Below are positions 23,928 through 41,459 of a DNA stretch of 64,000 nucleotides, piece after piece. Numbering within the stretch: position 1 is the first letter of the stretch; every line of letters begins with the position of its first letter. This stretch comes from an uncultured Pseudomonadota bacterium (GTDB lineage: Bacteria; Oederibacteriota; Muellerivitia; Muellerivitales; Muellerivitaceae), in contig CAWIIP010000001.1 in the NCBI GenBank assembly GCA_963836235.1, forward strand, positions 480,001-544,000, in the 5' to 3' direction. The notes under the pieces were generated by a model. The model worked only from the letters and a program-made list of their open reading frames with translations, was not told where the DNA came from and searched no databases. The translations under genes and the position numbers were made by a program.

Positions 23928-24935
23928 TTAGCCCTTGGAGGCCATATATTCAATCAGGTCAACAACCCGGTTGGAATAGCCCCATTCATTGTCATACCAG
24001 GAAAGCACTTTGACCATGTTCCCACCAGTTACATACGTGGACAAAGAGTCCACGATGGAGGAATGCGGATTGCCCTTGAAGTCAGCCGAAACGAGGGGCT
24101 CGTCGGTCACGTCCAAGTACTTGTCCAACTTCGCACTCTTGGCGGCTTCCTTCAATGCGTTGTTGACGTCATCCTTGGTCACAGTCTTCCCTAGCTCCGC
24201 CACTAAATCCACCACCGAAACCACGGGGGTAGGGACACGAATGGACAATCCATCCAGTTTACCCTTGAGATCCGGCAAGACCAACCCGATGGCCTTGGCT
24301 GCCCCGGTTGAAGTGGGAATCATGTTCAGGCTGGCCGCCCTTGCCCGGCGCAGGTCTTTATGAGGAAAATCTAGTGTGACTTGGTCGTTCGTGAAGCTAT
24401 GAATCGTGGTCATCAAACCCTTCACAATCCCAAACTTGTCGTGTAACACCTTGGCGAAGGGCGCAAGACAGTTCGTTGTGCAGGAAGCGTTGGAAACTAC
24501 ATGGTGGTTCTTGGGATCATACTTATCTTCATTCACCCCTAAAACAATGGTCAAATCCTCACCCGATGCCGGAGCTGAAATGATGACTTTTTTCACAGAA
24601 TCTTTGAGGTGGGCCACTGCCTTGGCTTTATCAGTGAAATGACCGGTCGATTCGACCACAAATTCGGCGCCAACTCCTCCCCAAGGAATCTGAGCTGGGT
24701 CTCTTTGGGCGAAAACCTTAATTTCCTTGCCGTTGACGATCACGGAATTTTCACCCGCTTTAACGTCGGCATGTAGATTACCCAAAACCGAGTCATATTT
24801 AAGAAGATGAGCGAGGGTTTTAGCGTCGGTGAGATCATTGACCGCGACAATGTCTATGTTCTTGTTGCCCATTGATGCGCGGTACACATTGCGTCCAATA
24901 CGGCCAAAACCGTTGATGCCGACCTTGATTGCCAT
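23928..24935 (-). CDS. gap: Type I glyceraldehyde-3-phosphate dehydrogenase
   Basis: [37 protein letters not shown]. Start set at ATG 24935 after GGAGG. Confidence 0.98.
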
Positions 24936-24970
24936 AAAATTCCTCCGAAAAGTGTGGATAAGTGGGGGGT

Positions 24971-24999
24971 AAGCTAGCACAGGGGTTTTCGGGGGTCAA
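24971..24999 (-). promoter_or_regulatory. Sigma-70 promoter of the gap operon
   Basis: Minus strand TTGACC-17 bp-TAGCTT with an extended -10 TG. Confidence 0.55.
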
Positions 25000-25110
25000 G
25001 GGTTGTATGGAAGCTAAAAAGCCAATCTTAAGTTTGGAATTTTTAGTTCCAAATGATAGAAATTTGTAGCCAATGAATATGACGATAATTCAAAATTCAT
25101 GACTACAATA

Positions 25111-25869
25111 TTAAAAATTGGCGCTTTGGCGTGGCGTTCTTCCGAAAACAAGGGCTCCCACCCAGACAATACCGGCTTTCTTCAAAACCCTCGCGCATTC
25201 TTCTAATGTAGCTCCCGTTGTAAAAACATCGTCAACTAAGATAGCTTTCTTTATCGACGAACTCTGCTCCAAGGCATTATAAGCTCCCTTCGGATTCTTT
25301 AATCGCTCCGCCCTGTGAAGGGACATCTGGGGTATCGTTGATTTGATCTTTTGGAGGATCGGTCGCATCGGAATCCGGGTTTGAACAGAGATTTCATCCG
25401 CCAAAAGGGCAGCGGGGTTATACCCTCTTTCCCTTTCCCGTTCAGGGCTTAGGGGAACTGGAATCAAGACCTCCACCCCATCCCAGAATGAAGGAATAAC
25501 CGGACGAACCATTCTCCGGGCAATTTCCGTTTTCAAACTTTCCATACCCTCAAATTTGAATCCATGATGGGTTGTCCGTAAAGCACCGTCATAGGGCCCA
25601 AAAGCCCTAACCCGGTCTAAAAAATAGGGCTCATCGCCGCAGTCTTTACATCTTATAAGTACCGCGCCTTCAAATGCTCTCACCGGTAAAGAAATACCGC
25701 AATGCTCGCAAAGGGGATCCTCATAAGATTCCATGGTTTCAAAACAGGACCTGCACAGAATGTTTGATAGGCCGATATCAAAAAACTCACCGCAATGCTC
25801 GCATTTTTTTGGAAAAAATAGATCAACAAAATTGTTTTTAAGGTTTTCGAAAAAGACGTTTTTTAACAT
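25111..25869 (-). CDS. comF: ComF-family protein (double zinc ribbon plus phosphoribosyltransferase domain)
   Basis: Four CxxC pairs, IPVPL..RERGYN, LVDDVFTTGATL. Its ATG overlaps the TAA of the upstream gene (TAATG at 25867-25871). Confidence 0.92.
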   Translation of the reverse strand: MLKNVFFENLKNNFVDLFFPKKCEHCGEFFDIGLSNILCRSCFETMESYEDPLCEHCGISLPVRAFEGAVLIRCKDCGDEPYFLDRVRAFGPYDGALRTTHHGFKFEGMESLKTEIARRMVRPVIPSFWDGVEVLIPVPLSPERERERGYNPAALLADEISVQTRIPMRPILQKIKSTIPQMSLHRAERLKNPKGAYNALEQSSSIKKAILVDDVFTTGATLEECARVLKKAGIVWVGALVFGRTPRQSANF

Positions 25870-28800
25870 TACTTGATAACAGCAACTTTGCTGAATTCTT
25901 GGTGGCCACCCGGCGATTCGGTCGTGATGAGGTAAACCCCGGACGCCACCAGGTTTCCGTTCTTGTTATGGGCGTCCCAACTCGTCCAGTAGATTCCCGG
26001 CTGATAATAGACCTGGTTCACCAGGGGCTCAATAAAGGTCCCATCCAAGGTATAAACCTTGATAGTGACATTCCCCGGCGTGGTCACGACAAACCGGATC
26101 TTCACCAACTGCTCATTGCTGGCGCCAAAGGGCCGGATCGCGTTCCGGTCCAACGCCGTGTTGGGGCTAATGGGGTAACCTGTCACCGGATTGTAGCCGC
26201 TGAGGTGCACCAAATCCTCCGTCACCGCCTCGGAAAGAGGAACCGGAAGGTCAGGCGGATTATCAAAAGCTTGGACCAAATAGGTATAAGGAATTCCGTT
26301 GATCAAGGTTACCGGGTCAAAGTAACTGGCCGAAGCGGTGGGAAGTCCGTTTACAAAAGTCGCCGGAATGGTACCGATATTTTGGTAAACCCCGCCACCG
26401 TCCATGGACCGGGAAATAGAATAGCCTCCTAAGGGATACATGGTTTGGGGATTAAAGGTTTGGTCAGCCCCTCCCCAAGAAAGGGTGTTCCCTATCAGAG
26501 TCTGGGTATCGCTGGTGTTTTGAGTCAATGTGACCGGCGAACCAGTGACGAGAATGGTCGATCCACCCGATTCCGCGGTTTGTACGATTGGGAGAATAGG
26601 CGCCGCCGCAGGCAAGGCTATGGCTGACGCGTAAGCGTTTGAAGTCATACCTTGAGCATCCACCGTGTAAACATGATAAACATAGTAATTTTTGTCTTGA
26701 ACGCCTGTATCGATGAAGTTCGCGCCCTGGTACCTGTTGGCGATAGTTTGAAAAGACGCAGCTGAGGCTGGCCCCAATTTCCGTTGGATGATAACCGTGC
26801 TGTTGGTGACTCCCTCGGAATTCCAGCGTAATTGAACCAAACTATCACTTGAAACCGCAACGAGGTTGGAAACCGGCTTGGGATAAGTATTTTGGCCGAC
26901 GATGTTCGAAAAGGGGCCCAGGATATTATTTTGCGAGCTTGGGGCAATCTCATAAATATAAGAGACGCCATCGGTTAAATTCGACGTGTCGACATAATTA
27001 GTATTCGAGATTGGTTCGACAATTGATCCAATCGGAGCGAAATTCGGGGTTTGGCTGGGGGTCACCCCTGCCCGGTAAATGGCATATCCGGTCACCGGGC
27101 TGGTGGCGGCCACGGTTATGGGCATCCAAAAAAGCTGGTTACTTTCGGCGAGTGGAGTGAGGTAGAGGGTTGGCACCGGAGCGGGGATAAAGCTTTGGGG
27201 CGCGGAAAGGCCGCTATTCCCAGAGGCATTTTGAGCGTCCATCCAGTAGATATATGCCGTTCCCGTAGTGACTGCCGAATCGAAATAATTATTGATTGGC
27301 GGTGTACTGGAGACCAATGGTGTTGGATTGGGTGTCATCGTCGGATAGAGGCTCCGGTAAATATCATACCCGGTAACGTTCACGTTGTTCCCTGTCGGGG
27401 TGGCCCAGGACACCGTCACCGAGGTGGCGTTTCCCGCAAAGGAGAAATTAGTCGGATTGGGCCAAAGGGTGACCCCCCATTGGGCGGAAACCGCCGGGTT
27501 CGAGTTGAGGCCCAATCCATTATTCGCCACTACTTGGTAACTATTCACGTAACCGGGGGCAAACCCCGTATCGGAATAATAAGAAACCGGTGAATTGACC
27601 GACCCTATGGCGACATAAGTCGGGGTGGTGCTGGGCGTTGGAACGCTGAGCCGATTGATGGAATATCCGCCAACGGCATTGGAATAAGTCAGTCCTGTGA
27701 TCCAGACCGCCGGGTAAAAAGCGGGAGTTTGACTGGGAACCGGGGTCACATAGGGCGGCGGAGTTAATCCGATACTGGGCGTCACGGCAGGCGGCACCAA
27801 GACGCTGACGGCCTGGGAAAGGGTGCTGGGCCCGGCCGAGTTATTGGCCACCACTTGGTAAACCGAAAGATTCCCGGGAGTTTCCACGAAACCCACGGAT
27901 AAAGTGGGGCTTGGGGTGACGGTCATGGTGGGTGTTCCATTTTGATAAATCACGTAACTCAGTACATTTTCCTGGCTTGCGTTCCCCGCCCAATAGAGGG
28001 TCGTCTGATTGGCACCAGAAATGGACGTAAGCCCTGAAGGCGCATTGGGCCATATGAGTACGCTTCCCTGAGGATCCGGCGTCAAAACCGAGTAAAGAGG
28101 GCTTTCCGCCGATTGTCCCGACCTAGCTGTTACGCGATAGTAATAACTCACCCCCGCTGTGGCGGTGGGCGGCACATCCATATAGCCGGTAGTTGAAATC
28201 GGAACGGTCGTCACCGGCGTAAAATTGGCGTCAGGTGTCAGAGACCGGTAGATCCCATAAGAATCGATCACCGGGGTAACGGTCAAAGCCGGAACCAGGT
28301 TCCAACTCACCGAAACTTGCTGGGTTCCAGCCGGGATGACGGCAGTGACATTGTAGGCCGGAACCGGGATGCCATTCATTGTCGCTGGCTGGCTATTACC
28401 GACGGCGTTTTGGGCCACTAAGTAATAATTGTTGGCGGTCCAGGGGGTCGGCGTCGGGGCGAATGTAAAGACCCTTGTGGGTGTCCCGGTGGCTGGCGCC
28501 ACCAGGACGGGAGTTGGAGTGTTGCCGCTCACCGTAAGCCAATCCGAGCCATAAACCAGATAATTGGTCACACTATCGGCCCTTGGATTCGCGGCCCAAG
28601 AAAAGAGAATAGATGTGTCCGACCCCGTGAAAGGCAATACCCGGGGTGTTGCCGGAGGATTCGATAATAAAATGGTCGTAACGGGGTTGGAAGAAGCCGG
28701 GTCAGAGGTATTCCCCAAGGCGTCCGCCAAAGCAACCTGATAACCCAGGAGGGTTCCAGGGGTCAATTCGGGGGCAATATCGGTGTAGCTGAGTTGAGTC

Positions 28801-30506
28801 GCCGGGACCTTGGCGACGAACCGGGGGGTGGGCGTGGGTGTGGTGAAGTTTAAGCGGAAAATCACGTACCTCTGGGCGGAATCAAAAAAACCGGGCGTGC
28901 CGGCCTGCCAGGAGACAGCGATTTGATCATTTCCAACAGGCGCAGCGGCACCCACATTCGTGGGCGGTGTCGGGGCCAGATTCAATGCGGGGGGAACGGC
29001 GACTCCCACCAATCCTCCGTGTCCGGTCGAGTCCAGCGGTTGAACCCAATAGTTCATATGATTTTGGATAGGAGTGTCGATAACCGGAGTAATGGTGTAA
29101 CCGACCGTTGGGTTGAAGGTAACGACATAAAAGGGATTCGGAGTTGCCGTCGCACTGGCAATAGGCGTTGGATTATTCGCTGGCACCCCATACAGGCTCT
29201 TATAAACCTGATAGCCCCCCAACCCATAAGTTCCAGACGTCGCCGGTTGCCAGGTAACGGTAACGGCATTGGTGGTGGCATCAGGCGTGACGATGATGGA
29301 TGCCTCACTACATTCAGCCACAGTAATTGAAATCGGATTGGAATTAGTGGTTCCAAAGGCGTTAGTCGCCTGAACGGTGTAGACGACTGGCTGGCCGGTT
29401 CCCGGAATGGTATTGTCAAAATAAGAAACTGACCCTGAACCTGCGTATGGAATGGTTGTCAGGGTGATCGAACTGTTTTGCAAAACCTGGTAAGCCGTCA
29501 CGTTCTCCGTGGACAATGAACCCGTCCAGGAAAGGCTCACTCCGTAGGTGGTTGTTGAAAGAACCCCGGTAAGGGAGACTGGTCCCGGCGGCGACATATT
29601 TTGGGGCAAAGCGGGGTTGGAAGGAACGGATGGTTGGGCGCTTAAATTTCCCGGGTTATCGCTATCCGCGGCCATCACTACGTAATAATAAGCTTCCGGG
29701 CCCGGGGAACAGGTTGTGTCGGAGTAAGAGGTTCCCGTAACGCTTGCCGCGATTAGATTTATGGGAACAAAAATGGTAGCGACCGATATTGGAGCAATCG
29801 GCGAAAAAACAGCGGTTGCGGTTGAAGTCGGCGTAAATGGTGTGGGAGTGAACGTGGCCGTTGAGGTGTTCCAAGTGCCAATGGGGGTGGAAGTGGCTGT
29901 AGGCGTTATCGTAGGGCTATTTGTGGAAGTGGAAGTCGGAAGGAGTGTCGTCGCCATATAGGCGTACCGATAAACGGAGTAATAAGAAATGGGGTAGCTG
30001 GAGACCGGCACTCCCCAGAAAAGATCCAAGGCATTGGAATGAATGTTCAGGACGCTCACCGGCTGAACGGCCGCCGGAGCAAGGAAAGGAGCCGCCGTCA
30101 CCGCTGACGATATCCCTGGGCCGTTTAGGTCAATTCCCTGCACCTGGTAGAGGTAAACCCGGCCATTGGTCACCTGAAAATCCTGGAAAACAGGCGTTCC
30201 TGCCTCTGGCATCGCGGATAAAAGCACTGTCGCTATGGGGGTCGGGGTGGCATCGGGCGTAAAAGGCCCCGTGGGCGTCGGTGTCGGGGTACAGGTCAAA
30301 TTCAACAATTGCCGGGAAATCGCATAAGCCGTAACACCCGATCCAAGCGTGTCCGGGGTCCATTCCAGGTTTACTTGGCCGTTATAAGGGGAAAGTATGG
30401 TAACCCCACTGGGCGCCGGGGCCTGGGCCCATACCGGCAAAGGCGAAAAAGGCGATAAAAACAAAAAAAGCAACCCTGCCGATGACCAGAAATATGAAAA
30501 TTTCAT
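25869..30506 (-). CDS. Large secreted fibronectin type III repeat protein, Thr/Pro-rich, with a C-terminal FlgD-Ig / T9SS-sorting-like domain
   Basis: Signal peptide (..VWA|Q). Repeated FN3 signatures (VxLxW, YxIYR, YxD, YYYxVxA). C-terminus VKIRFVVTTPGNVTIKVYTLDG..WDAHNKNGNLVASGVYLI..KVAVIK. Confidence 0.82.
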   Translation of the reverse strand: MKFSYFWSSAGLLFLFLSPFSPLPVWAQAPAPSGVTILSPYNGQVNLEWTPDTLGSGVTAYAISRQLLNLTCTPTPTPTGPFTPDATPTPIATVLLSAMPEAGTPVFQDFQVTNGRVYLYQVQGIDLNGPGISSAVTAAPFLAPAAVQPVSVLNIHSNALDLFWGVPVSSYPISYYSVYRYAYMATTLLPTSTSTNSPTITPTATSTPIGTWNTSTATFTPTPFTPTSTATAVFSPIAPISVATIFVPINLIAASVTGTSYSDTTCSPGPEAYYYVVMAADSDNPGNLSAQPSVPSNPALPQNMSPPGPVSLTGVLSTTTYGVSLSWTGSLSTENVTAYQVLQNSSITLTTIPYAGSGSVSYFDNTIPGTGQPVVYTVQATNAFGTTNSNPISITVAECSEASIIVTPDATTNAVTVTWQPATSGTYGLGGYQVYKSLYGVPANNPTPIASATATPNPFYVVTFNPTVGYTITPVIDTPIQNHMNYWVQPLDSTGHGGLVGVAVPPALNLAPTPPTNVGAAAPVGNDQIAVSWQAGTPGFFDSAQRYVIFRLNFTTPTPTPRFVAKVPATQLSYTDIAPELTPGTLLGYQVALADALGNTSDPASSNPVTTILLSNPPATPRVLPFTGSDTSILFSWAANPRADSVTNYLVYGSDWLTVSGNTPTPVLVAPATGTPTRVFTFAPTPTPWTANNYYLVAQNAVGNSQPATMNGIPVPAYNVTAVIPAGTQQVSVSWNLVPALTVTPVIDSYGIYRSLTPDANFTPVTTVPISTTGYMDVPPTATAGVSYYYRVTARSGQSAESPLYSVLTPDPQGSVLIWPNAPSGLTSISGANQTTLYWAGNASQENVLSYVIYQNGTPTMTVTPSPTLSVGFVETPGNLSVYQVVANNSAGPSTLSQAVSVLVPPAVTPSIGLTPPPYVTPVPSQTPAFYPAVWITGLTYSNAVGGYSINRLSVPTPSTTPTYVAIGSVNSPVSYYSDTGFAPGYVNSYQVVANNGLGLNSNPAVSAQWGVTLWPNPTNFSFAGNATSVTVSWATPTGNNVNVTGYDIYRSLYPTMTPNPTPLVSSTPPINNYFDSAVTTGTAYIYWMDAQNASGNSGLSAPQSFIPAPVPTLYLTPLAESNQLFWMPITVAATSPVTGYAIYRAGVTPSQTPNFAPIGSIVEPISNTNYVDTSNLTDGVSYIYEIAPSSQNNILGPFSNIVGQNTYPKPVSNLVAVSSDSLVQLRWNSEGVTNSTVIIQRKLGPASAASFQTIANRYQGANFIDTGVQDKNYYVYHVYTVDAQGMTSNAYASAIALPAAAPILPIVQTAESGGSTILVTGSPVTLTQNTSDTQTLIGNTLSWGGADQTFNPQTMYPLGGYSISRSMDGGGVYQNIGTIPATFVNGLPTASASYFDPVTLINGIPYTYLVQAFDNPPDLPVPLSEAVTEDLVHLSGYNPVTGYPISPNTALDRNAIRPFGASNEQLVKIRFVVTTPGNVTIKVYTLDGTFIEPLVNQVYYQPGIYWTSWDAHNKNGNLVASGVYLITTESPGGHQEFSKVAVIK

Positions 30507-30621
30507 AAAAGTTCCTGAGTACCTTTTAAAATGGGGCTTCTCTTAAGTGAATTCTTCTCTTTTCCAGGCAAAGAAGACCCGGACAAGTTCCAGGTCCCGT
30601 ACCTTTTACCCGGCGTCAAAC

Positions 30622-33600
30622 TCAGAACCGCGCTTCCGCGGAAACCTCACCCTGCCACAAGGTATAGCTCAACTGGGAATTCAGGTCGTTCGTGAAATAC
30701 TCGTTGGCCAGGCTGAGGCCGATACGCAAATTTTTGAGGGCGTTGTAATTGAGGTTGATTGTAGCACGGTACCTTTGGGATTGAACCTCGTTGTAAATGT
30801 AGGTCGATTGGTTATTGATGAATTCCATAAGGAAGACCGCTTGCAACTCGATGGCGTCCTGAAGCTTGATCTTTAAATGAGTGAAAGGGATATGGATCTC
30901 CCCGTTGGGAGCGAACTTCTGGTCATATTCGATGGAAGCTTGGTCGTCATACTGAAAGGTCGGAATATTCGTGGTGGACAATCCATTCTGGTAACCAATG
31001 GTGCGTTGGAGCTTGATGTTGCCCTGGGCTTTTTTATTGATGTCATAGGGCAGGGTGATCGTGTAGGTATCGCTTTCGGTGTCGTTGGAAATATTGGCCG
31101 AAGTCGGGTCCGGAACCGAGCTATCGTATTGGATGGTGCCCGTGTGGGTGTACTGAACTTGGGCGGAATCCAGGGAAAAATTCACCAAAGGAAGGGTCAA
31201 TATCTTTTTGTTATAAATGGTGGTCAGTCCCAGGGTGTCCCCATCCTGTTTGACGGGGTTTGTGCCCTGTGACAAAAGGCTTAACTGGTCGGTCCAAGAG
31301 CCCGTGGGCCGGAAATCCCAAACATCGAAAAGGCGGAAACTGGCGTTCAATTGGTGGGCTACGGACTGGTTGCCGGTTAAGGCGACGTCAAAAGCGGGGG
31401 TAGTCAGCCACCGCTCGTTGAAACTTAGAGGTCGGACTTGATCGATATCGGGAATGGCGGCTGTGCCGCTTTCGGTGAGCCCGCCGAAGATGGTTAGGTT
31501 CATTTTCTGGAACAAAGAGAACCAACTGCCGGGAGTCAAGTTGAGGGAATAATTCACGTTGTTGGCGTTGTTGAACCGGGTCCCATCCGGATAGGAAACA
31601 TAGTCGTATTGGTTGCTTCCCGTAAAATCCACCGCGGGAATGAGCCCCGGTATTCCCCGGTAAACCACCCCAATCTTAGGCTGATATCTTTGATTGAAGG
31701 GGGTATAGCCGGAAACACTACCGGGAACTCCGGGCGAATTGGTATTCCCCGTCGCGTCCACCAGGGTCAAAGTATAGCCGGGGGTAAAGACAAGGTTTTT
31801 CACCAATTCGGTGGTGTTCGTCCAAGAATAGTTTTGCGACCGGGTGGTCCGGTCATAGGAAGACAAGGTGATGTTGTCAAAATACTGGGTGTCGTGAGTC
31901 AAACTGTAACTTTCCGTGAATTGGTTCGCGCCCCATGGGATAAAGAAGAAATTTTTCGGCGCGTCATAAGTGGAAGCCAATGTTTCGATCACCTCACCCT
32001 TTTGGGTATTACCTTGAACCCCCGGCTGGCTGAGATAGGCATCTTCGTAGGTATCATTTTCATAATTGGTACTCCCAGATAAGCGGAGGGTAGTTAATCT
32101 CCCAAAACTGGGGCCCAGGTCCTTTGTATAGCTGATACTTCCAGTGGCGTTGTCAATACGGCTGTTTGGAAGGGAAATATAATAGGGATTATTGAGTAAG
32201 GCGGCTTCGGTATAGAGGTCCTGCCTCGTGATGGAAGCTTGCGTGACCAGGGGTTGTTTAAAAAGAGTCACTCCGCTGGAGGTAAAATCCCCCCCCCATT
32301 GGGTGGAATGTTGGAAGTGGGTGGAAGTTTGGTCTATTTCGGTGAAGCCCGAGTCCACCTCCCGGTAGCGGGTATTGATGGTGGCGAAGTTCTTCCCGAG
32401 AACAAAGGCCGCGTCGGCGCGCCGGGCCACGCCGCTTCGCACATTGGCATTGGCAACACGGAGGTTATTGATCCAAAGATCACCTGTGTGCCCTGTGGAG
32501 GGGGCAGTGGGCGAAATCACGCCAAAACTGATCTGGGTGGCACGGTTGATGTAAGGAGTTCCCACTTGGAGCCGATTCCCCGCCGAACCATTGATCGGAA
32601 CATCGACCGTCCCCCAATTGTACAAACAGCTGACCGCAGCGGTGTCTAATTGGATGTTGTATTGGTAATAGTCCGCTTGATCGTTTCCAATCCGGACAAA
32701 AAGAACGTCCCCCGGCCGGTAAGAAAGCATGTAAAGATCCATCCGGATATCATCGTAATCCGTAAAGTCCAAGCCCTGGCTGAAAATACGGGTGGCGTAA
32801 TAAGCAGGAAGACCGCCGTAAATATCCCCATTGGAAAGGTTGTAAGTGATTTCCAGGGATTTTTCCTGGTACAAAATGGCCGATTGGTCCTGGCCCGCCT
32901 GGACGGTAATAAAACGCAAAGAAGGCACGTAGCTTTGGTTTTGGTTCTGGCTGATGGAATTGACGTCAAATTTGGAACTGTTAACCGTAACAGGCTCAGT
33001 GGCAGCCACTGTCGGGTCCACGGCCAATTGCCACAAGTTGTGGCTGAAACTGATATTTTGAATGTAAAAGTCCCCGCTGATCGGGGTGGAATTGACTCCC
33101 GTGGTCCAAACCCGAACCGTCCGGATAATCGTCGGGTTGGCCGCCGCTGGATTTTGTGTATGGAAAAAATAGGTAGTCCCATCTGGGGTAGTCGTTTCGT
33201 TATCTGCCGCGGTATAACTCACTGGAACCTTGACTTGTTTCCATCCAGTCCAATTAGCTTCAAAGCCATATTCGTAATAGGCATTATTGGTATTTATAAT
33301 TCCCGTTCCATCCATATTTTCAGTTACATAGGTGGTTCCGGTGCCAACGCTGACTCCTTCTTGAGAGGACGTTTCACCACCAGCGAGTAGGTTTGTCGGG
33401 GGGGATCCGATAGGAATGATTCCAGTTGGAAATGGTATCTCTGAACTTCCAGTCCATGGATTACCAGGATAATAATAAGTGGGGATGCCATAATCTGGAT
33501 TTGCTTGGACTTGGGGGATCGCTGTCAGTCCTGTGTCATAGTCTAGTATTCCATTCCCGTTGGAATCCTCGTCGATTACCCCAAAATCCACCATGATCCA

Positions 33601-36600
33601 CTTCGGATTTCCGTCGTTATAAATCCAGGATTGTAAAAAACTAACGTTGGAGTAATCCGATCCATTGGCGGAAATGACCGACCTTACACCCGCCCACTGC
33701 TGGTTGGTCAAATTGGAATAGGGAAATTGAAGGACGGGAACGGCATCGTTCGGTTGCTGGGTGTTGGCAAAAGTTTCTCCCCCATAGGCTGCCCCAACAC
33801 TTAAATAGTTTGTATAGCTCGTTGCAACTTGAGTTGTCGTCCCTATGGTTTGAAAAATGGTCATGGTGGGGTTAGAGGCTCCCGCGTTGTAAAACCGGGT
33901 GCGGTTGTTTGTCGGACCCGAAGCTGACATTGGAACAATCGGTAAAAAACCAATCGGTTGAATCGGCGCCGATGAAACCAGCCAGCTGCTTTGGTTCATG
34001 GAGGGCCCCGACACGCTATCGATACCTTCCATGTTGTCCACCATCGCCACGCCGTTTTCTCCCTCAGCGCTAAAGGTATCGGGATTGTAAAAACTCTGAG
34101 CGACTTCCCCGGATAATTTGATAGCCAAGGGGGGTTTCCAATTTTCCAGTCCAGGAACGATACCGGTCAGGGATTGGACATCCTCCGATAAAAGATCAAG
34201 TTTCGCGTCCGCGTCAAAGAGGGTCAAGGAATTGGGCGTGGAACCGATTTGCGGAACGTCGATGGGTTGTTGGGCGTCGCTTTCCAGAAAGGTAGAACCG
34301 ATAAAAAAGTGGTCGTTCACGTCATATTCCGCGCGGGCTCCGAGAATGTTGTTCGCGCTAAATGTACCAAAGGGGGCGTATTCATAGGTTACGACGACCT
34401 GGCTTGCGGGGGTCAGGATGCTCTTGTCGACGAAATCCAGGAAGCCAGAAGTGTAATCGAAGGTATAGTCCACGTCCCGCCGCAGTTTTCGGCCGTCCAG
34501 AAAAACCGACTCACTTCCACGGATGATGTTGAACCGCCCCATCTGGAAGAAATTCAACTGCGTTGAATAGTGGATATGCACCGAATAGAGGCTGTTAGGA
34601 GTTGTGGTTTGGTCATAAACGTCCGCCGGAGTATTGCTGGAACTGGAACCACCCGTCGTATCCAGGTTGGCAAAGGGCCGTTCCGGCCAGAGAAAAGAAG
34701 TGGCCGCATTGGGTACCGGGGGAGTGGTTCCAGGTGCGATATAAAAATTAGAATTGCTGACCGTCAATACGTTTAAATCTAAATTTACGTCATAAATCCA
34801 AGGATTGGGGGCACCGACTGTTGAGACCCCTTGCCCCGTTTGAAGGACATTATTGGTGCCTTGGGAGATGACCTGAAACACGAAATTGGGATCTTGTTGG
34901 GGAGGGATAATCTTATCCGTTCCCAAACTGAAGTAATTCACCAGATAGTTGGGGCTCAAAGCCGTGGCGTTGACCGAAGTTCCCCCCGTGCTGTTGTTGT
35001 TATCCTTGATTAAATGTCCCTCAACTGTTTTTCCGCTTCCAGGAGGAATCCTTCCCACAATACCGTCGTCCGGCACATATAAAGTATCGGGGGTTAGATC
35101 AATAGTGGTGGTCGACCCCGTAGTGAAACCGACATTATGCCCGTCCTTAGTTTGGAAACAGACCGCGATTCGGCACGATACGGATAAACCTCGGATGAAA
35201 GTGATGATGCCGGTGGAATAATCGACCGTGTAATCCCGGCCCGGGAGCCAGTGCTCGAAAAGCCCGTTGAAATTAGGCCCAATGGGGTTGATCACTCCCG
35301 TTCCCGGATCCACCCAAATCTGTTCCGTATTATTCGCGGGGAGGGCCCCATTCACGATTTGTCCCGACGTGGGATCGGTATAGGGCCGATAATCCCGGGT
35401 GATGAGGAAATAGCGGTAAGGCACATAGCTGATATCCTGGATGTATTTATCGATTTGGGAGGCGTTTCCCTGGAAAACTTTCGTCTCCGAAATCCCTTTT
35501 GTTTGGGCGAAAAAGGTGGTCAAGTTGAATTGGTCGAATTTCATCTTGGCCTGGAGCCCGAATAATTGTTTACTGAAACCCGCGAATTCCGTGTTGGGGA
35601 GGACAAGCTGTAAGTCCCCGAAGTCGACTTCCTGGATGGCGCTGTCCGTGTCCCCATGGTACTTAATGGAAATATCCTGCTTGGTCTGATCCACGCCACC
35701 GGCCCTATTGACGTCGCTATAATCCACATTCACGTCGACATTCCTGCCCACTTTTCCCTGCAAGGTCACGACCAATTCCTGGTTGACTGTCGTGGTGTTC
35801 ACAGATGGCAAAACTCCGTTAATAGGTGGACGATCAAAATTTTGAAAAGCCAATAGGATATCGACTTTTTTATATCCCTGAATGGCAAGTGAGGTTTCGG
35901 CAGGGAGTTGGAGGTTAATTCCATTGGTATCGGGAATTTTCAGGACTTGCTCTTCTACGGGTGTCGGCTTGGGTTTTGGTTTTTGGGCCGCCGCCTTTTC
36001 TTCCGCGGACTGCGGTATTTCCATGCCTTCGGGGGTTGCTGTAATTTCATCGGAATAGGGGCTGACATTGCCCTGGGAATCGCTGGAAGCGATGACGTAG
36101 AAGTAATCTTCACCATTAAGAGGAGGGGAAAGGCTGCCTTGGGCCCCATCCAGGAAATAAGGGGCCGAAAGGGGTTTTATATTGACCTGTTTATAACCAA
36201 AACCCGGCGTGGTGGAGCGAAAAACATTGTAGGCCGTGACAGGCGAATTGGACGGTGCCGCCGCCCAGGAAAGATAAACGCCTTCTTTTAAAATCAACAC
36301 ACTTAACCCCGTGGGAGCGGCAGGCGGAGCATAACTGGCCGCGGCGGCGGCCGGGGTGGTAACCGATGATGAATTGGAATTAAGCGTCGTAACGGACTGT
36401 CCTTGGTTGTTGGTGGATACAGTGGTTCCTTGTGATGGTGATGAACCCGCCGCACTTGTGTTGGATTGGGCTTCGATAGCGTCCAATATTTGGATCTCTT
36501 CTTGAGGGCTTACCGATAAATCGGTGGTGGGTGCCGAAGCGCTTTGGGCAGGGGTTGCCGGGACAGTGGAAGAGATTGTAGCGACCGGTGTTTGGGCTTC

Positions 36601-36708
36601 AAGTCTCGGAGTCGTCAAAACCATCAAAAAAAAGGCAAGCAGGCACCACAGACGCCAATGATTTTTGGCGGTGGTTATTGAATAACAGTGCCTATTGGGA
36701 AACCACAT
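30622..36708 (-). CDS. SprA/Sov-like very large outer-membrane beta-barrel protein (T9SS translocon-like) with an extra N-terminal FN3 domain
   Basis: Signal peptide, S/T/P linker and FN3. Then SprA-like motifs LQGKVG..VNVDY..IKYHG..IQEVDFGD..LFGLQAK, NIIRGSESVFLDGRKLRRDVDYTFDYTSG, ILGARAEY, VDNMEG, EDSNGNGILD and DLWINNL. Long amphipathic beta-strand C-terminal half ending in Phe (VSAEARF). Confidence 0.72.
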   Translation of the reverse strand: MWFPNRHCYSITTAKNHWRLWCLLAFFLMVLTTPRLEAQTPVATISSTVPATPAQSASAPTTDLSVSPQEEIQILDAIEAQSNTSAAGSSPSQGTTVSTNNQGQSVTTLNSNSSSVTTPAAAAASYAPPAAPTGLSVLILKEGVYLSWAAAPSNSPVTAYNVFRSTTPGFGYKQVNIKPLSAPYFLDGAQGSLSPPLNGEDYFYVIASSDSQGNVSPYSDEITATPEGMEIPQSAEEKAAAQKPKPKPTPVEEQVLKIPDTNGINLQLPAETSLAIQGYKKVDILLAFQNFDRPPINGVLPSVNTTTVNQELVVTLQGKVGRNVDVNVDYSDVNRAGGVDQTKQDISIKYHGDTDSAIQEVDFGDLQLVLPNTEFAGFSKQLFGLQAKMKFDQFNLTTFFAQTKGISETKVFQGNASQIDKYIQDISYVPYRYFLITRDYRPYTDPTSGQIVNGALPANNTEQIWVDPGTGVINPIGPNFNGLFEHWLPGRDYTVDYSTGIITFIRGLSVSCRIAVCFQTKDGHNVGFTTGSTTTIDLTPDTLYVPDDGIVGRIPPGSGKTVEGHLIKDNNNSTGGTSVNATALSPNYLVNYFSLGTDKIIPPQQDPNFVFQVISQGTNNVLQTGQGVSTVGAPNPWIYDVNLDLNVLTVSNSNFYIAPGTTPPVPNAATSFLWPERPFANLDTTGGSSSSNTPADVYDQTTTPNSLYSVHIHYSTQLNFFQMGRFNIIRGSESVFLDGRKLRRDVDYTFDYTSGFLDFVDKSILTPASQVVVTYEYAPFGTFSANNILGARAEYDVNDHFFIGSTFLESDAQQPIDVPQIGSTPNSLTLFDADAKLDLLSEDVQSLTGIVPGLENWKPPLAIKLSGEVAQSFYNPDTFSAEGENGVAMVDNMEGIDSVSGPSMNQSSWLVSSAPIQPIGFLPIVPMSASGPTNNRTRFYNAGASNPTMTIFQTIGTTTQVATSYTNYLSVGAAYGGETFANTQQPNDAVPVLQFPYSNLTNQQWAGVRSVISANGSDYSNVSFLQSWIYNDGNPKWIMVDFGVIDEDSNGNGILDYDTGLTAIPQVQANPDYGIPTYYYPGNPWTGSSEIPFPTGIIPIGSPPTNLLAGGETSSQEGVSVGTGTTYVTENMDGTGIINTNNAYYEYGFEANWTGWKQVKVPVSYTAADNETTTPDGTTYFFHTQNPAAANPTIIRTVRVWTTGVNSTPISGDFYIQNISFSHNLWQLAVDPTVAATEPVTVNSSKFDVNSISQNQNQSYVPSLRFITVQAGQDQSAILYQEKSLEITYNLSNGDIYGGLPAYYATRIFSQGLDFTDYDDIRMDLYMLSYRPGDVLFVRIGNDQADYYQYNIQLDTAAVSCLYNWGTVDVPINGSAGNRLQVGTPYINRATQISFGVISPTAPSTGHTGDLWINNLRVANANVRSGVARRADAAFVLGKNFATINTRYREVDSGFTEIDQTSTHFQHSTQWGGDFTSSGVTLFKQPLVTQASITRQDLYTEAALLNNPYYISLPNSRIDNATGSISYTKDLGPSFGRLTTLRLSGSTNYENDTYEDAYLSQPGVQGNTQKGEVIETLASTYDAPKNFFFIPWGANQFTESYSLTHDTQYFDNITLSSYDRTTRSQNYSWTNTTELVKNLVFTPGYTLTLVDATGNTNSPGVPGSVSGYTPFNQRYQPKIGVVYRGIPGLIPAVDFTGSNQYDYVSYPDGTRFNNANNVNYSLNLTPGSWFSLFQKMNLTIFGGLTESGTAAIPDIDQVRPLSFNERWLTTPAFDVALTGNQSVAHQLNASFRLFDVWDFRPTGSWTDQLSLLSQGTNPVKQDGDTLGLTTIYNKKILTLPLVNFSLDSAQVQYTHTGTIQYDSSVPDPTSANISNDTESDTYTITLPYDINKKAQGNIKLQRTIGYQNGLSTTNIPTFQYDDQASIEYDQKFAPNGEIHIPFTHLKIKLQDAIELQAVFLMEFINNQSTYIYNEVQSQRYRATINLNYNALKNLRIGLSLANEYFTNDLNSQLSYTLWQGEVSAEARF

Positions 36709-36820
36709 ACATCAATCCTTTTAAAAACTCGCGAGAAATCGTTATACCCAAAATAAAAAAATAGGCCCCCGGAAATTATTTTCCATTTCTTGTCACCACA
36801 AAAATTATTTTTCATGGCCT

Positions 36821-37570
36821 TCAATCCAAGTCTAATACCTTTTTCAAGTCATCCAATCGTTCCCGGCTGACAGGTAACCGGGTTTTGCCGGGATCGGCTA
36901 AAACCGCCAAATACTTTCGGTCACCTTCATGCTCCAATTCCTTGAGGAAATCCATATTGATGATGGCGCTGCGATGGATCCGCAAGAAGCGTCCGGTATC
37001 CAGCCTTTGGGCCAAAGTATCGAGACTATCATCCGCGAGAAGTTCCTGGCCTTCGACTAAAATAACGGCGTAATGGTCCCGCGCGATCACCGCGGAAACC
37101 TGAGTGGGATCAAATACCCGGTATTTAGACCCGCACTTAACCGCCATCCGCCGTTTCGCCCGTCCTTCTTCCAGCTTTTCAAGAAACCGCTGTAAGTTGG
37201 CCAATGGGGCTGGATTTTTTTGTTTCCGGACTCTTTCGATGGTTTCTGACAATCTTTCGGGGGAAACTGGCTTCACCAAGTAATCCAGCGCTGAAAGCTC
37301 AAAAGCCTTCAATGCGTGCTCACTGTAAGCCGTGACAAAAACAACCGCGGGGCCCTCAGTTCCCCAAGCTTCCGCCACTTCCAAACCGTTCAATTCTGGC
37401 ATTTCAATATCGAGAAAGGCTAGGTCCGGTTTTAGGTTTTCGGCAACCTGGAGGGCTTCCAATCCGTTGGCGGCCTCGGAAACCACTTGGATATCCTTGA
37501 AGTCAGAAAGCATCCTGACCAAACGGGAACGGGCCGGGGCTTCATCATCAACAATCAATACTCTGATCAT
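36821..37570 (-). CDS. LytTR-family response regulator
   Basis: IVDDEAPAR, FLDIEMP, FVTAY, DYLVKP, and LytTR motifs FLRIHRSAIIN and LPVSR. Confidence 0.95.
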   Translation of the reverse strand: MIRVLIVDDEAPARSRLVRMLSDFKDIQVVSEAANGLEALQVAENLKPDLAFLDIEMPELNGLEVAEAWGTEGPAVVFVTAYSEHALKAFELSALDYLVKPVSPERLSETIERVRKQKNPAPLANLQRFLEKLEEGRAKRRMAVKCGSKYRVFDPTQVSAVIARDHYAVILVEGQELLADDSLDTLAQRLDTGRFLRIHRSAIINMDFLKELEHEGDRKYLAVLADPGKTRLPVSRERLDDLKKVLDLD

Positions 37571-38718
37571 ATTTCCACCTCATCCGAAAAATCGGCGGGA
37601 ATCATGGGCAAACTTAAAAGAACCCTTGATCCCCCATTTTCCCGTGGTTTGATCTCCATCTTTCCTTCTTCTCCAAAACCCAATTCCAACCTTTTTCTGC
37701 AATTTTCCAAAGCCGTCCCCGACCCCGCGTAATGCGAATTTCCAAAGCCCACGCCATCATCCTCCACGCTTAAATTCATTATTCCGCCAGCGACGCCAGC
37801 ATTGATCCAAAGATGGCCTCCCGTCGCTCGGGATGAAAGACCGTGCTTGACGGCATTTTCAACTAAAGGTTGGAGCAATAAAACCGGAATAAAGAACCGA
37901 CTTGGATCCAACCCCTTTTCAATCACAATATGGGTTTGCAAACGCGATCCAAACCTGGCTTTTTCGATATCGAGATAGTCTCTGCAAAACTCCAGTTCCT
38001 TTTCCAAGGAATGATGAGTTTTCCGCGTTGCCGTTAAAACCCCTTGAAAAAGTGTGGAAAGCTTAACCACGACTTGCTCCGCCTTGGCCGGATCGGCCGG
38101 TATCAGGGAAGCAACGGTATTTAATGTGTTAAAGAGGAAATGCGGATTCATTTGATCTTTTAACTTGGTCAAGACGGCCTGAAGTCTCTCTTTTTCCAGT
38201 TCTTCCGCCCTCAGTTGATTACGTTGGGCCGAGTCGCGTAAATCCTGCCAGGACATAAACAAAAAACAAATTAGCAATAGCGCCCAAACCCAGAAAATCT
38301 CTGTTCCGTAATATTCCCATTGAAAGGTTGGGGCGATTGGCGCGCCGGCGTAAACAAGATTAATCCCGGCGACCATAACGTGAAGAGCCGCGAATAATCC
38401 TGGGGGGGCCAAAAAGGCCAGAAAAAACATATACCAACCCGTTCCGTGATGCGGTTGGTTTTTTGATGTTTTCACTACCCATATTTTTTCAACTAACAGA
38501 TATGTGCGGATCACCGACAAGCCCAGAAAACAAACAAGTGTAGCTTCCAAAAAGTTCCAGCACCAACGAAAAAGGATCGAAGCAAGAGAATGGTTTCCCA
38601 ATACGATGGTGACAATTAAAGTCCAAAGGGGATTCCAAACAAGAAGCAACTTTCCACCTGAAACCAAGAAAGATTTCTCAAAATCCAAAAAGAATACTTT
38701 CTGTAATTCTTTGTTCAT
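37567..38718 (-). CDS. LytS/YehU-family sensor histidine kinase (4 TM)
   Basis: QMNPHFLFNTLN, LLQPLVENAVKHG, VEDDGVG, GTALEN..RL; about four TM helices. Start set at ATG 38718 (38853 also possible). ATGA overlap with the regulator. Confidence 0.9.
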   Translation of the reverse strand: MNKELQKVFFLDFEKSFLVSGGKLLLVWNPLWTLIVTIVLGNHSLASILFRWCWNFLEATLVCFLGLSVIRTYLLVEKIWVVKTSKNQPHHGTGWYMFFLAFLAPPGLFAALHVMVAGINLVYAGAPIAPTFQWEYYGTEIFWVWALLLICFLFMSWQDLRDSAQRNQLRAEELEKERLQAVLTKLKDQMNPHFLFNTLNTVASLIPADPAKAEQVVVKLSTLFQGVLTATRKTHHSLEKELEFCRDYLDIEKARFGSRLQTHIVIEKGLDPSRFFIPVLLLQPLVENAVKHGLSSRATGGHLWINAGVAGGIMNLSVEDDGVGFGNSHYAGSGTALENCRKRLELGFGEEGKMEIKPRENGGSRVLLSLPMIPADFSDEVEI

Positions 38719-39210
38719 CGACCATTCTTTCCGTTGGATGGTGCCTTTGGATCTAAGAGTTGAAAAGCGGGAGGCTTCACCAGGAACAGACCCCACCTTC
38801 GAGATAATAGCAACCCTTGGAAAGTTCCACGGGCTAATTTTGGCCTTTTCCATTCTATATTCCTTATTTTTTACGGGAGGGAGGCATTGGAAAATAACGC
38901 CGGACCGATCTTTCAATCGGTCCGGACGCTGCCCAATATCAGCCCGTCCACCACCAGTTGAATCCGGAAGGCGGGGGGCTGATGCCCTGTAGTAAAAATA
39001 TCGCATCTTAGTGTCGAAAGATCCGAGGAACTCTCGAATGGACGGAAAAGGGACCTAAAATGGCGAAAATCCTATGTTATACTGACGCCGATTGCAGCTA
39101 TCAGCCCCCAGTCTTCGATCAAAAGCCTAACGCCAATTTTACTGAAGGCCAGGCACTTTAACATCAATCTATTCCCGGCCGCAGAAGGCCCTATTGCGCA
39201 AGGATTTTGG

Positions 39211-40374
39211 ATGAAAACCATCTACCGTTATGTCCTCATGGAAATGTTGCCGTCTTTCCTTTTATGCGTCGCCATCCTGACTTTTTTATTTATGACCAAC
39301 AAAATTTTCTTGTCCTTGGACTTAGTTCTCAATAAAAAAGTTTCCATTTCCGAGACTCTACTTTTATATCTCAGTCTCCTACCTTTAATACTTTCTTTGA
39401 CCATCCCCATGGCCATGATGGTAGGAACACTCCTCGCTTTCGGGCGATTAAGTTCCGATATGGAAGTCACGGCCTTCAAAAGCGGCGGAGGACACATATT
39501 TCACCTCATTTCCCCAATCTTGGTCTTTGGACTTCTCATGACCTGTCTGATGCTTTACTTCAACGATAAGGTCCTACCGGCCGCGCAGTTCATGGTTAAG
39601 AAAATTGAATTTAATATCATCAAAAAAAAGGCGGACGTGGCCATCCGAGAACGGGTTTTCATCGACCAGTTTGAGGGTCACCAGTTTTATATCGACCGGC
39701 GGGATCCAGACGGTCTTTTTTCTGACGTGAAGGTCTTCGACCATTGGTCTTCAAAACCTTCCGTACAAACAACTTTGGCTAAGACTGGTACGTTAGATAC
39801 AGATCAGAAATCCTATCAGGTTTTTTTCCACTTGAATAACGGCGTCATGAGTTGGGATAACAATCATTACAACACTTACAATCAGCTTTACTTTCAACAC
39901 TACATCATCCGGCTAAAACTAGAAAATCAATTGGCTGGACTCACTGATATCAAAAAGGATTACGAGGAAATGGATTTGCGCGAAATCAAACAATCTATCC
40001 CCGTGGAAACCGATCCTGGGCGGTTGAATTATTTAAAAACAGAATATCAAAAACGCCTTGCTCTCCCATTTGCTTGTTTAGTACTAACCTGGTTTTGCGC
40101 CCCCCTGGGTCTTTGGACCCGTTCCAAGGGATTTATGGGATTTGTATTGGGGCTCGCCATGATTTTTGTTTACTACTTAATGTTCATTTTCGGCCAGACT
40201 TTAAGCAATGTAGGAAAGGTCAATCCTTTTTGGGGTCTTTGGGGCGCCAATATAATTCTGGGCTTTGCGGGTTTTGTGATTTATTACATTGTCGTCTCAG
40301 AACATTCCGCCTTCAAACACTCTGTTCGATCCAGTCGAAAAAAACATCCGGTCGAAAAGCTGACCTTTAAATGA
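39211..40374 (+). CDS. lptF: LPS export ABC transporter permease LptF
   Basis: YjgP/YjgQ pattern: RYVLME..F, GRLSSDMEVTAFKSGG, three TM plus periplasmic jellyroll plus three TM, KRLALPFAC. Confidence 0.88.
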   Translation: MKTIYRYVLMEMLPSFLLCVAILTFLFMTNKIFLSLDLVLNKKVSISETLLLYLSLLPLILSLTIPMAMMVGTLLAFGRLSSDMEVTAFKSGGGHIFHLISPILVFGLLMTCLMLYFNDKVLPAAQFMVKKIEFNIIKKKADVAIRERVFIDQFEGHQFYIDRRDPDGLFSDVKVFDHWSSKPSVQTTLAKTGTLDTDQKSYQVFFHLNNGVMSWDNNHYNTYNQLYFQHYIIRLKLENQLAGLTDIKKDYEEMDLREIKQSIPVETDPGRLNYLKTEYQKRLALPFACLVLTWFCAPLGLWTRSKGFMGFVLGLAMIFVYYLMFIFGQTLSNVGKVNPFWGLWGANIILGFAGFVIYYIVVSEHSAFKHSVRSSRKKHPVEKLTFK

Positions 40375-41459
40375 AAGTTCTCACCCGATATATCTTAGTT
40401 GAATTTCTAAAACCCTTTTTATTAGCCACCGCTGGATTTTGCGTACTTTTTCTTCTTGTCCAAATTTTCAACGACATGCATCTCATAATGGAATTCAAAC
40501 CCCATTTCTGGGTAACTCTTAAATATTTTTCTTTTCATATTCCTGGTTTCATAATCCAAATTATTCCCATCGCCTGCTTGTTTGGCGTTCTTTTTTCGCT
40601 TAGCGCGCTTTCCAAAGGCAACGAACTTATCGCCATGAGAGCGGGCGGAATCAATATTTATTACGTGGCCTTACCTTTATTTTTGTCCGGGATAATTATT
40701 TGTATCGCGAGTATTTTCTTCAATGAACTGATGGTTCCCAAAGCCGAAGCCTTAAAGCGACGTATCAAGACAGTGGAAATACTGCATCAACCCGAAGCCG
40801 AAGCCAATAAATTTCGCCAGGATATTTCCATGATCGGCGTCGGAGGCCAGATCTATCACATCGGTGCTTTTGATGGAACCGTGAACACTCTATCGGATAT
40901 TCTCATTTTGGAATTCGGGCCCGACAGCCATTTGAAATCTCGTCTCGACGCCAAGGCGGCTAAATACGAAAACGATCAATGGACTTTTTATGATGGATAT
41001 TTAAGGGTCTTTGACGATACCGACACGGAAATATCCGCCCAACCTTTTGATAAAATGCCACTCGCCCTTCCCGAAAAACCCGGCGATTTCCTGAAAGAAC
41101 AAAAGGAACCGAACGAACTCAACATCACGGAACTATTGGCATATATTGGCCAGCTAAAGCGGAACGGTTCCGACTGTCACAAAGAATTAGTGGAACTTTA
41201 TTACAAATTCGCTTCTCCGTTCGGTTGTGTCATTTTGGCTATCTTAGGGGTTCCGTGGGGATGGACGATGAGGAAATACAGTGGGGTGGTTACCAGCTTC
41301 CTGATCAGTATGGCGGTGGGATTTGTTTATTTGGGAGGGATGCAAATTGGACAACATTTGGGAGAAGCAGGAGTCATTTCTCCATTTTTATCCGTGTGGA
41401 TCGTGAATGTTATTTTTGCCCTGCTGGTGCCCATAATGCTTATTTGGAAAAACCGGTAA
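40371..41459 (+). CDS. lptG: LPS export ABC transporter permease LptG
   Basis: LTRYILVEF, LSKGNELIAMRAGG, YKFASPF; ATGA overlap with lptF. Confidence 0.88.
   Translation: MKVLTRYILVEFLKPFLLATAGFCVLFLLVQIFNDMHLIMEFKPHFWVTLKYFSFHIPGFIIQIIPIACLFGVLFSLSALSKGNELIAMRAGGINIYYVALPLFLSGIIICIASIFFNELMVPKAEALKRRIKTVEILHQPEAEANKFRQDISMIGVGGQIYHIGAFDGTVNTLSDILILEFGPDSHLKSRLDAKAAKYENDQWTFYDGYLRVFDDTDTEISAQPFDKMPLALPEKPGDFLKEQKEPNELNITELLAYIGQLKRNGSDCHKELVELYYKFASPFGCVILAILGVPWGWTMRKYSGVVTSFLISMAVGFVYLGGMQIGQHLGEAGVISPFLSVWIVNVIFALLVPIMLIWKNR

Follow-up and report, generated by a model that had tools for sequence, protein, structure and literature searches.

Can a type IX secretion system (T9SS) be a core trait of bacteria outside the lineages to which it has been assigned and, if so, which of its parts would be found there? 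The sections of the literature considered here describe the T9SS as confined to the Bacteroidota or to the Fibrobacteres-Chlorobi-Bacteroidetes (FCB) group (PMC11205867, PMC5837995) and name the GldLM/PorLM motor as its source of power (PMC10994853, PMC11205867, PMC5837995). The question is raised by a 64,000-nucleotide stretch of DNA from an uncultured bacterium (GenBank assembly GCA_963836235.1, contig CAWIIP010000001.1, here C1:480001-544000; hereafter 'the window'), in which an earlier reading of the bare sequence, referred to below as the original prediction, had seen a giant SprA-like translocon gene next to a cargo gene with a T9SS-like tail. The source genome measures 3.97 Mb in 5 contigs and is 99.4% complete and 0.14% contaminated, and the contig carrying the window is 576 kb long. 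Our analysis indicates that sprA and its neighbour probably encode the translocon at the core of a type IX-like pathway and a conserved cargo dedicated to it, and that this pathway is among the core traits of the FCPU426 lineage.

Both open reading frames (ORFs) of the original prediction, of 2028 and 1545 aa, were recovered at their coordinates, and the motifs that it had quoted, the terminal Phe of the larger protein and the ...KVAVIK end of the smaller one are all present in the translations. Judged by profile comparisons, the 2028-aa protein (30622..36708, minus strand) is a divergent homologue of the SprA/Sov-family outer-membrane translocon. It begins with a signal peptide, which was read from the sequence and has a predicted cleavage site between LEA and QT near residue 38, followed by a Ser/Thr-rich linker, one FN3 domain (residues ~130-230) that matches the FN3 domain of chitinase A1, and a SprA-homologous body extending from residue ~265 to the C-terminal Phe. 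The protein passed the NCBIfam model TIGR04189 with 226.6 bits (E 4e-67, in 5 stretches) at a cut-off of 200 bits, and a 13-sequence profile matched the Flavobacterium johnsoniae SprA structures 6H3I/6H3J in the PDB with an E-value of 7e-38 (residues 295-1340 on chain residues 151-1442). Similarly, a 47-sequence profile of residues 829-2028 matched PDB SprA with an E-value of 1.3e-37 (chain residues 858-1895). When hhalign was used against 14 FCB-type SprA proteins, a set that includes proteins named for Krumholzibacteria and Bacteroidota, the alignment reached a probability of 100% and an E-value of 1.6e-106 (283-1469 on 188-1497), and the profile of residues 829-2028 reached a probability of 100% and an E-value of 1e-78, with positions 13-1136 (its end) on 778-2224/2225. 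In the profile alignment, the motifs of the original prediction fall on columns common with F. johnsoniae SprA, the shared patterns being GKxG..V..Y, Q.V.FG, GS..V..DGR.L..D.DY..DY..G and VD.MEG; the proposed SprA-like identity was confirmed by the profiles. A six-frame search of the genome with TIGR04189 located only this one SprA locus. Pfam returned no family for the protein at E<=0.1, including SprA_N (PF14349), which is listed in the precomputed annotation of some relatives at 22-46% identity, and a phmmer search of the PDB with the single SprA sequence gave no match. In the ESM Atlas the best clusters score 0.87 and contain SprA_N in 12-20% of their members, which is a lead only.

The gene directly 3' of sprA (25869..30506, minus strand) encodes the 1545-aa cargo, which comprises a signal peptide (cleavage between VWA and QA), 13 FN3-like domains and, at its C-terminus, a putative sorting domain. 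The FN3-like units are arranged in tandem over residues 24-1421, with a Pfam fn3 match, and each of 14 orthologues carries 13-14 of them; the protein is probably a long rod displayed as a cell-surface fibril. Its last 95 aa (25872..26156, minus strand), ending in KVAVIK, form a type-A-like C-terminal domain (CTD) of the FlgD_ig/Por_Secre_tail superfamily, as judged with a hidden Markov model (HMM) that was seeded with them. All 18 complete cargo orthologues keep this domain, which ends in K[VI]AV[IV]K and is 57-83% identical, compared with 36-56% for the rest of the protein. Taken alone, the domain matched Pfam FlgD_ig with 13.4 bits (E 0.08), below the cut-off of 27, and the C-terminus of NCBIfam PorZ with an E-value of 2.8e-4, and the cargo is absent from the 47 TIGR04183 (Por_Secre_tail) matches of the genome.

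The HMM, seeded with these 95 aa and iterated over the 15,835 six-frame ORFs of the genome, matched 112 ORFs, in 110 of which the domain lies at most 25 aa from the C-terminus. The 110 ORFs total 120,334 aa (~9% of the genome length); 88 of them end in R, H or K, and 79 have signal-peptide-like N-termini according to a crude check. With 110 C-terminal copies, the domain is clearly not unique to the cargo. Moreover, 45 of the 47 TIGR04183 matches fall within this set, so that the cargo domain appears to belong to the type-A CTD family as a divergent representative. The T9SS-like tail of the original prediction was thus borne out at the level of the family; the tail itself passes no curated model.

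Enzymes acting on insoluble polymers need to be exported from the cell, and such enzymes are frequent among the 47 of the 110 CTD-bearing proteins that were covered by a Pfam scan. Glycoside hydrolase (GH5/8/9/12/16/18/28/30/43/62), PL4-associated or CE4 domains were found in 15 of the 47, some of them together with the carbohydrate-binding modules CBM3 or CBM6. The rest of the sample comprises two proteins with lectin-like F5/8 domains, two S8 subtilases, six DUF7948+SBBP proteins, three giant NHL/propeller proteins, six with FlgD_ig alone (one with a sortilin repeat) and 13 that match no Pfam family. The attachment of the domain to hydrolases of insoluble polymers counts in favour of a role as sorting signal. 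It likewise speaks against the idea that the SprA homologue serves some purpose other than export, for instance in outer-membrane or lipopolysaccharide (LPS) biogenesis, and that the CTDs are ordinary FlgD_ig modules rather than sorting signals. The internal copies of the domain that some proteins hold, the fact that the cargo domain scores best with FlgD_ig, and the lptG-lptF / sprA synteny seen in FCPU426-, Firestonebacteria-, Goldiibacteriota- and Elusimicrobia-labelled loci would all be compatible with such a non-export task, but the almost invariably C-terminal position with its conserved basic end and the stronger conservation of the domain relative to the rest of the cargo would not be expected from it. 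Many CTD genes are packed into two ~50-kb clusters (C2:1053591-1105314 and C1:189601-234205), one with 14 such genes including GH5, GH8, GH9, GH28, GH30 and GH43 and the other with 9 including GH30 and GH62 enzymes with CBM3.

As the original prediction had noted, the window holds no PorK, PorL, PorM, PorN, PorV or PorU gene; PorV-family genes sit elsewhere in the genome. The PorV/PorQ family model NF033709, which matches in the Bacteroides thetaiotaomicron positive control, identified 21 ORFs, and in 16 the match exceeds the cut-off of 90 bits. The seven ORFs that were scanned as whole proteins scored 108.6-171 bits, and none of these seven passed the narrower equivalog models for PorV (cut-off 250) or PorQ (cut-off 220); two PorV-family ORFs pass Pfam PorV (PF19572). 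For 12 of the 21 genes a CTD gene on the same strand ends at most 1.5 kb upstream, in 9 cases within 151 bp, compared with a background of 69 out of 1871 ORFs with such an upstream gene (binomial P ~1e-12). Six long paralogues with extra modules were scanned (C4:87761-89962, C2:1635231-1637168, C4:670057-671880, C2:132398-133921, C1:191785-193203 and C4:590028-592001), of which four carry C-terminal TPR, one FlgD_ig, OmpA and TPR, and one three FN3 domains. Relatives also have ORFs of similar length (580-730 aa). An 'orphan' PorV gene (C1:42982-43956) has an orthologue, 59-79% identical, in 26 of the 30 other genomes of our family set (31 genomes).

When the complex between the conserved PorV and the cargo CTD was predicted with ESMFold2, it scored 0.83, compared with 0.00 for the best of 3 controls. 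Among 157 solved complexes 116 attain the mark applied here, as do 2 among 215 mismatched pairs, calibration counts that hold only roughly for our run on custom alignments (27 + 19 rows); the runs agreed in at least 94% of contacts, with a partner pLDDT of at least 83. The model suggests that the cargo CTD may be recognised by a PorV carrier. Both the position of PorV-family genes 3' of CTD genes, far above chance, and the predicted complex speak against FlgD_ig modules that serve no sorting, and we consider a purely non-export role of SprA very improbable.

The next part of the question is whether the locus belongs to its host lineage. The 40 closest SprA proteins are 43-67% identical, and named relatives at 26-29% identity include FCPU426 and Firestonebacteria. 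With a 13-row alignment, 79 SprA loci were found in genomes. For most of the 26 closest of these (42-82% identity) the label is candidate division FCPU426; three are labelled proteobacteria and several uncultured bacterium. Loci further away bear the labels Firestonebacteria, Goldiibacteriota, 'Spirochaetia', Elusimicrobia, Turneriellaceae or Poribacteria. The nearest relatives are thus metagenome-assembled genomes (MAGs) labelled FCPU426, the candidate phylum at which the original prediction had guessed, and NCBI files FCPU426 under 'Bacteria candidate phyla' and not in the FCB group, in line with a host unlike Bacteroidota. Across the close loci the gene order reads lptG-lptF / histidine kinase-LytTR / sprA / FN3 cargo / comF / GAPDH / nfeD / SPFH, with GAPDH being 75-96% identical. 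A cargo homologue lies directly 3' of sprA in 22 of the 26 close loci, and in the other 4 the contig ends at or just after sprA; a CTD gene right after sprA is also found in 7 of the 53 more distant loci.

We then considered a phylum set of 99 genomes from 62 genera and 23 families, including the source genome. SprA was detected in 92 of the 99, and in 58 of the 60 high-quality ones, the seven genomes without a match being 63, 65, 66, 84, 89, 91 and 99% complete. The PorV/PorQ family was over cut-off in 99/99, with 5-20 matches in each, and in 4 of 5 further SprA-bearing genomes (Poribacteria-, Elusimicrobia-, Turneriellaceae-, Firestonebacteria- and Goldiibacteriota-labelled, which may overlap the 99), missing in the Turneriellaceae genome. 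In a tree of SprA (49 rows, 1512 columns; IQ-TREE quick, LG+G4, SH-aLRT only), 14 FCB-type rows were split from 35 non-FCB rows at 100% SH-aLRT, and the Poribacteria, Elusimicrobiota and Firestonebacteria labels formed one clade each, with a long and uncertain Turneriellaceae branch. This topology fits long vertical descent rather than recent transfer.

The composition of the locus, where GC is 0.50-0.55 over 26-36 kb against 0.44-0.48 in the flanks and the GC skew is reversed relative to the neighbouring genes on the same strand, and the Proteobacteria labels of some close MAGs might raise the suspicion that the locus was recently acquired from Bacteroidota or that its contig was mis-binned. 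Yet the composition at 26000-36000 fits the Thr/Pro/Ser/Ala-rich coding of both proteins (the cargo contains 12.7% Thr and 10.9% Pro) and is not a sign of foreign DNA. Given also the length of the contig, the low contamination of the genome, the recurrence of the gene order including GAPDH in close loci, the presence of SprA throughout most of the phylum set and a tree position far from the FCB-type proteins, this explanation is already contradicted and scarcely credible.

Having found translocon, carriers and cargo, we turned to the remaining parts of a T9SS. The search for Por components that the original prediction had proposed was answered in two ways: PorV/PorQ carriers are present and greatly expanded, but PorK, PorL, PorM, PorN and PorU were not detected. 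GldL, GldM, GldK and GldN gave 0 matches in the source genome. GldM was found in 0/99 genomes of the phylum set at E<=0.01 and in 0/5 of the further SprA-bearing genomes, GldL in 0/99 over cut-off, GldN in 0/31 of the family set and GldK in 0/31 of the family set over its cut-off of 350. GldK-like matches in 15 of the 31 family genomes were rejected as generic FGE-sulfatase domains (<=86 bits); among 14 control genomes, none of which has a T9SS, the GldK model also matched distant FGE-sulfatase proteins in 3. In the source genome, the PorU model NF033707 matched only CTD tails (model positions 962-1095), Peptidase_C25 (PF01364) and PorP_SprF (PF11751) gave 0 matches, and PorW/SprE (NF052312) reached at best 41 bits, from generic TPR, at a cut-off of 250. 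A TPR protein (8371-10584) and an ORF at 6322-7788 of the window matched neither PorW/SprE nor any other T9SS family. We also looked at other possible energisers: the genome has 5 MotA/ExbB-family genes, for which no link to the secretion system was seen, and the two nearest to cargo clusters lie in ordinary ExbB-ExbD-TonB or Tol-like clusters that include a TonB-dependent receptor or a YbgF/CpoB-like TPR protein. We regard the phylum-wide T9SS variant as real, comprising SprA, an expanded PorV family and ~110 cargo, without detectable motor, ring, PorW or sortase, and the interpretation given in the original prediction as supported.

Starting from the observed homologies of SprA, PorV and the CTD, together with the gene counts, the synteny and the phyletic distribution, we infer that secretion would follow a SprA-PorV route. 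Cargo would be exported to the periplasm by Sec, in keeping with the N-terminal signal peptides read from the sequences. A carrier barrel of the PorV/PorQ family, docked on the SprA barrel, would then recognise the ~90-aa Ig-like CTD, and cargo and carrier would exit the pore together, as in Flavobacterium, with general as well as cargo-specific PorV paralogues acting as carriers or anchors. This scheme is modelled on work in Flavobacterium, where, in the sections considered, the substrate CTD is described as binding PorV loops inside the SprA pore and loading as energy-free (PMC10994853).

Several points weigh against this reading. The SprA pass of TIGR04189 is narrow, and in the six-frame genome search sprA appeared in three pieces (112, 72 and 29 bits), not over cut-off. 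The assignment of the cargo domain to the type-A CTD family, for which no curated model is passed, is transitive. Since a Flavobacterium PorV-substrate complex has already been solved (8GL6 and others; PMC10994853, as far as the relevant sections describe it), the success of the PorV/CTD prediction may reflect likeness to that complex and not binding. The same source states that release of carrier and substrate requires GldLM and SprE/SkpA (PMC10994853), so that a system working without a motor would have to achieve release in some other way. In addition, the GldL, GldM, GldN, Peptidase_C25 and PorP_SprF models had no positive control, which leaves the absence of these proteins unproven, and because SprA is itself too divergent for Pfam and for single-sequence phmmer, equally divergent motor or ring proteins could have been missed.

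These last points lend themselves to a different explanation, namely that the T9SS here is complete and canonical, with PorLM, PorKN, PorW and PorU having diverged past the reach of TIGRFAM, NCBIfam and Pfam models. Besides the invisibility of SprA to the simpler searches, the missing controls and the need for a motor in Flavobacterium, weak GldL matches in 5 of the 99 genomes (E 7e-4 to 7e-3) count in its favour. These matches are scattered, however, cover the model tail (74-239) and occur in only 1 of the 60 high-quality genomes; the GldK-like matches are generic FGE-sulfatases with a patchy distribution that does not include the source genome; GldM is undetected throughout; and models of the same kind find SprA, PorV and the CTD in nearly every genome. 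We therefore consider a fully canonical but hidden system unlikely. The possibly motor-less pathway of the original prediction accordingly has in its favour that GldL and GldM went undetected in 99 genomes, but for want of a positive control the motor can be called likely, not proven, to be absent.

If it is absent, release could be brought about by cargo-specific PorV paralogues, some of them tethered to peptidoglycan or TPR scaffolds, or by cargo folding, and not by proton-motive force. It is conceivable, although we put this forward tentatively and would not call it probable, that SprA, PorV and the CTD form an older, self-sufficient export device without a GldLM/PorLM motor, to which motor, hub ring and sortase were later added in the Bacteroidota, perhaps in connection with gliding and LPS anchoring. 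Just as tentatively, this older device would span FCPU426 and the Goldiibacteriota-, Firestonebacteria-, Elusimicrobia- and Poribacteria-labelled MAGs.

The nearest counterparts of the proposed SprA-PorV-CTD pathway include the SprA-PorV translocon of F. johnsoniae (6H3I/6H3J; 8GL6 series), with which it shares a giant outer-membrane protein that is homologous and, for most of its length, collinear, PorV-family carriers, and a type-A-like CTD predicted to bind PorV. It differs in the low identity of SprA (~20%), its length (2028 aa here versus 2403), its N-terminal FN3 domain and its lack of a Pfam SprA_N match, as well as in the lack of detectable GldLM, GldKN, SprE, PorU and SprF and in a host outside the FCB group. 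Unlike the Bacteroidota T9SS, the system has an expanded carrier family of 16-21 paralogues. The genes of many of these immediately follow the gene of a specific cargo, and TPR, OmpA or FN3 modules are fused to several.

The T9SS of Porphyromonas gingivalis consists of Sov, PorV, PorKLMN and the attachment complex PorQ/U/V/Z. The Sov/SprA homologue, the PorV/PorQ-family barrels and the many CTD cargo of our genome resemble it, but no PorU (C25) sortase or PorZ body was found, only the C-terminal tails of those models being matched, and CTD cleavage and anionic LPS attachment in the P. gingivalis manner are therefore not expected to work alike here. There are also no PorX/PorY-type regulators at the locus, where a LytS/LytTR pair is found upstream instead. 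Finally, the arrangement of a cargo gene followed by the gene for its own carrier or anchor barrel, seen for 12 of the 21 PorV-family genes, recalls the type-B CTD cargo of Bacteroidota with cognate PorP/SprF-like carriers, such as SprB-SprF, as described in parts of two reports (PMC9143113, PMC12618676). The carriers here nevertheless belong to the PorV/PorQ and not to the PorP/SprF family (PF11751 had no match), the CTDs are type-A-like (TIGR04183) and not type B, and several carriers are fused to TPR, OmpA or FN3.

In a literature search covering mainly open-access journals, no paper was found that assigns SprA or a T9SS to FCPU426, Goldbacteria, Firestonebacteria, Elusimicrobia or Poribacteria. 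In the portions considered of a paper on Goldbacteria/FCPU426 cellulose degraders, secretion is not discussed and type IX appears only in the title of a reference (PMC7031533).

A Gln residue follows the predicted cleavage site in SprA (window 36595-36708), in the cargo (30420-30506) and, by eye, in 8 of 15 PorV-like N-termini. This recalls the 'Q-rule' of Bacteroidetes, as outlined in the part of the report considered (PMC5837995). We dropped it as a genome-wide trait, as a crude regular expression found it in 8 of 104 CTD ORFs.

The genes around sprA and the cargo are of interest mainly as context. A LytTR-type response regulator gene (36821..37570, minus strand; Response_reg + LytTR, BtsR/LytR-like) lies 112 bp upstream of sprA and is kept 5' of sprA in most close loci. 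It overlaps by 4 bp the gene for a LytS-type sensor histidine kinase (37567..39006, minus strand; His_kinase PF06580 + HATPase_c), which was also recognised by synteny, and both proteins are possible regulators of the operon. Divergent from this histidine kinase-response regulator-sprA unit are lptF and lptG, encoding LPS export permeases (39211..41459, plus strand; LptF_LptG Pfam), and in MAGs whose labels range from FCPU426 to Elusimicrobia, most loci have lptG-lptF on the 5' side of sprA. On the other side, a ComF-family phosphoribosyltransferase-like gene (25111..25869, minus strand; DZR_2 + Pribosyltran, with TIGR00201 comF below cut-off) overlaps the cargo stop codon by 1 bp, and in loci labelled FCPU426, Firestonebacteria or Elusimicrobia comF comes after sprA or after the gene for the cargo. 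The lptG-lptF / sprA / comF order is conserved among MAGs labelled FCPU426, Firestonebacteria, Goldiibacteriota and Elusimicrobia. Both lptF/lptG and comF are conserved neighbours, and lptF/lptG are taken as context rather than as demonstrated parts of the system.

With regard to expression signals, the ribosome-binding sites of the original prediction were seen as AGGA and AAGGA 8-9 nt 5' of the two start codons (sprA and cargo). Its canonical promoters did not stand up, since 9 sites were counted over 24800-39400 compared with 13.6 +/- 3.7 in shuffles, and terminators over the same interval were not above chance either (15 versus 21.3 +/- 5.8). Among the listed sequencing runs containing words of the genome, one soil-metagenome DNA run contains 0.36 of the sampled words, and none is an RNA run.

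A domain scan of the rest of the window confirmed LpxI, CheC and the C-terminus of CheA, on which the original prediction had drawn. An LpxC-FabZ fusion, LpxA, LpxD, LptF/G and Skp are encoded there too, and this gene content marks the host as an LPS diderm with chemotaxis genes. The fusion joins LpxC and the FabA/FabZ dehydratase domain in one 445-aa ORF (43095-44432, minus strand); LpxC-FabZ fusions are typical of Bacteroidota. An IS30-like transposase gene (HTH_38 + rve; 47981-48961, minus strand) separates the LPS gene cluster from the block that follows. Two EamA half-transporter ORFs (51246-51767, 173 aa, and 51764-52072, 102 aa, minus strand, with a 4-bp overlap) adjoin a complete two-domain EamA gene (50428-51312) and represent a split gene or a frameshift. 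Elsewhere in the window, a 964-aa protein with CBM9 and carboxypeptidase-regulatory-like domains but without a C-terminal sorting domain (10738-13632, minus strand) is encoded next to two LacI-type regulators, in what may be a glycan-use locus.

Taken together with the distribution described above, the genes for the translocon, its carriers and a very large set of cargo proteins belong to the core of a distinct candidate phylum whose members degrade polysaccharides. Should the absence of the motor prove true, a minimal transport unit would be separable from the energy chain, the actual role of the motor would become testable by comparison, and the origin of type IX secretion would shift outside the FCB group. 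For the organisms themselves, the pathway offers a way in which uncultured soil and peat bacteria could export cellulases and other hydrolases.

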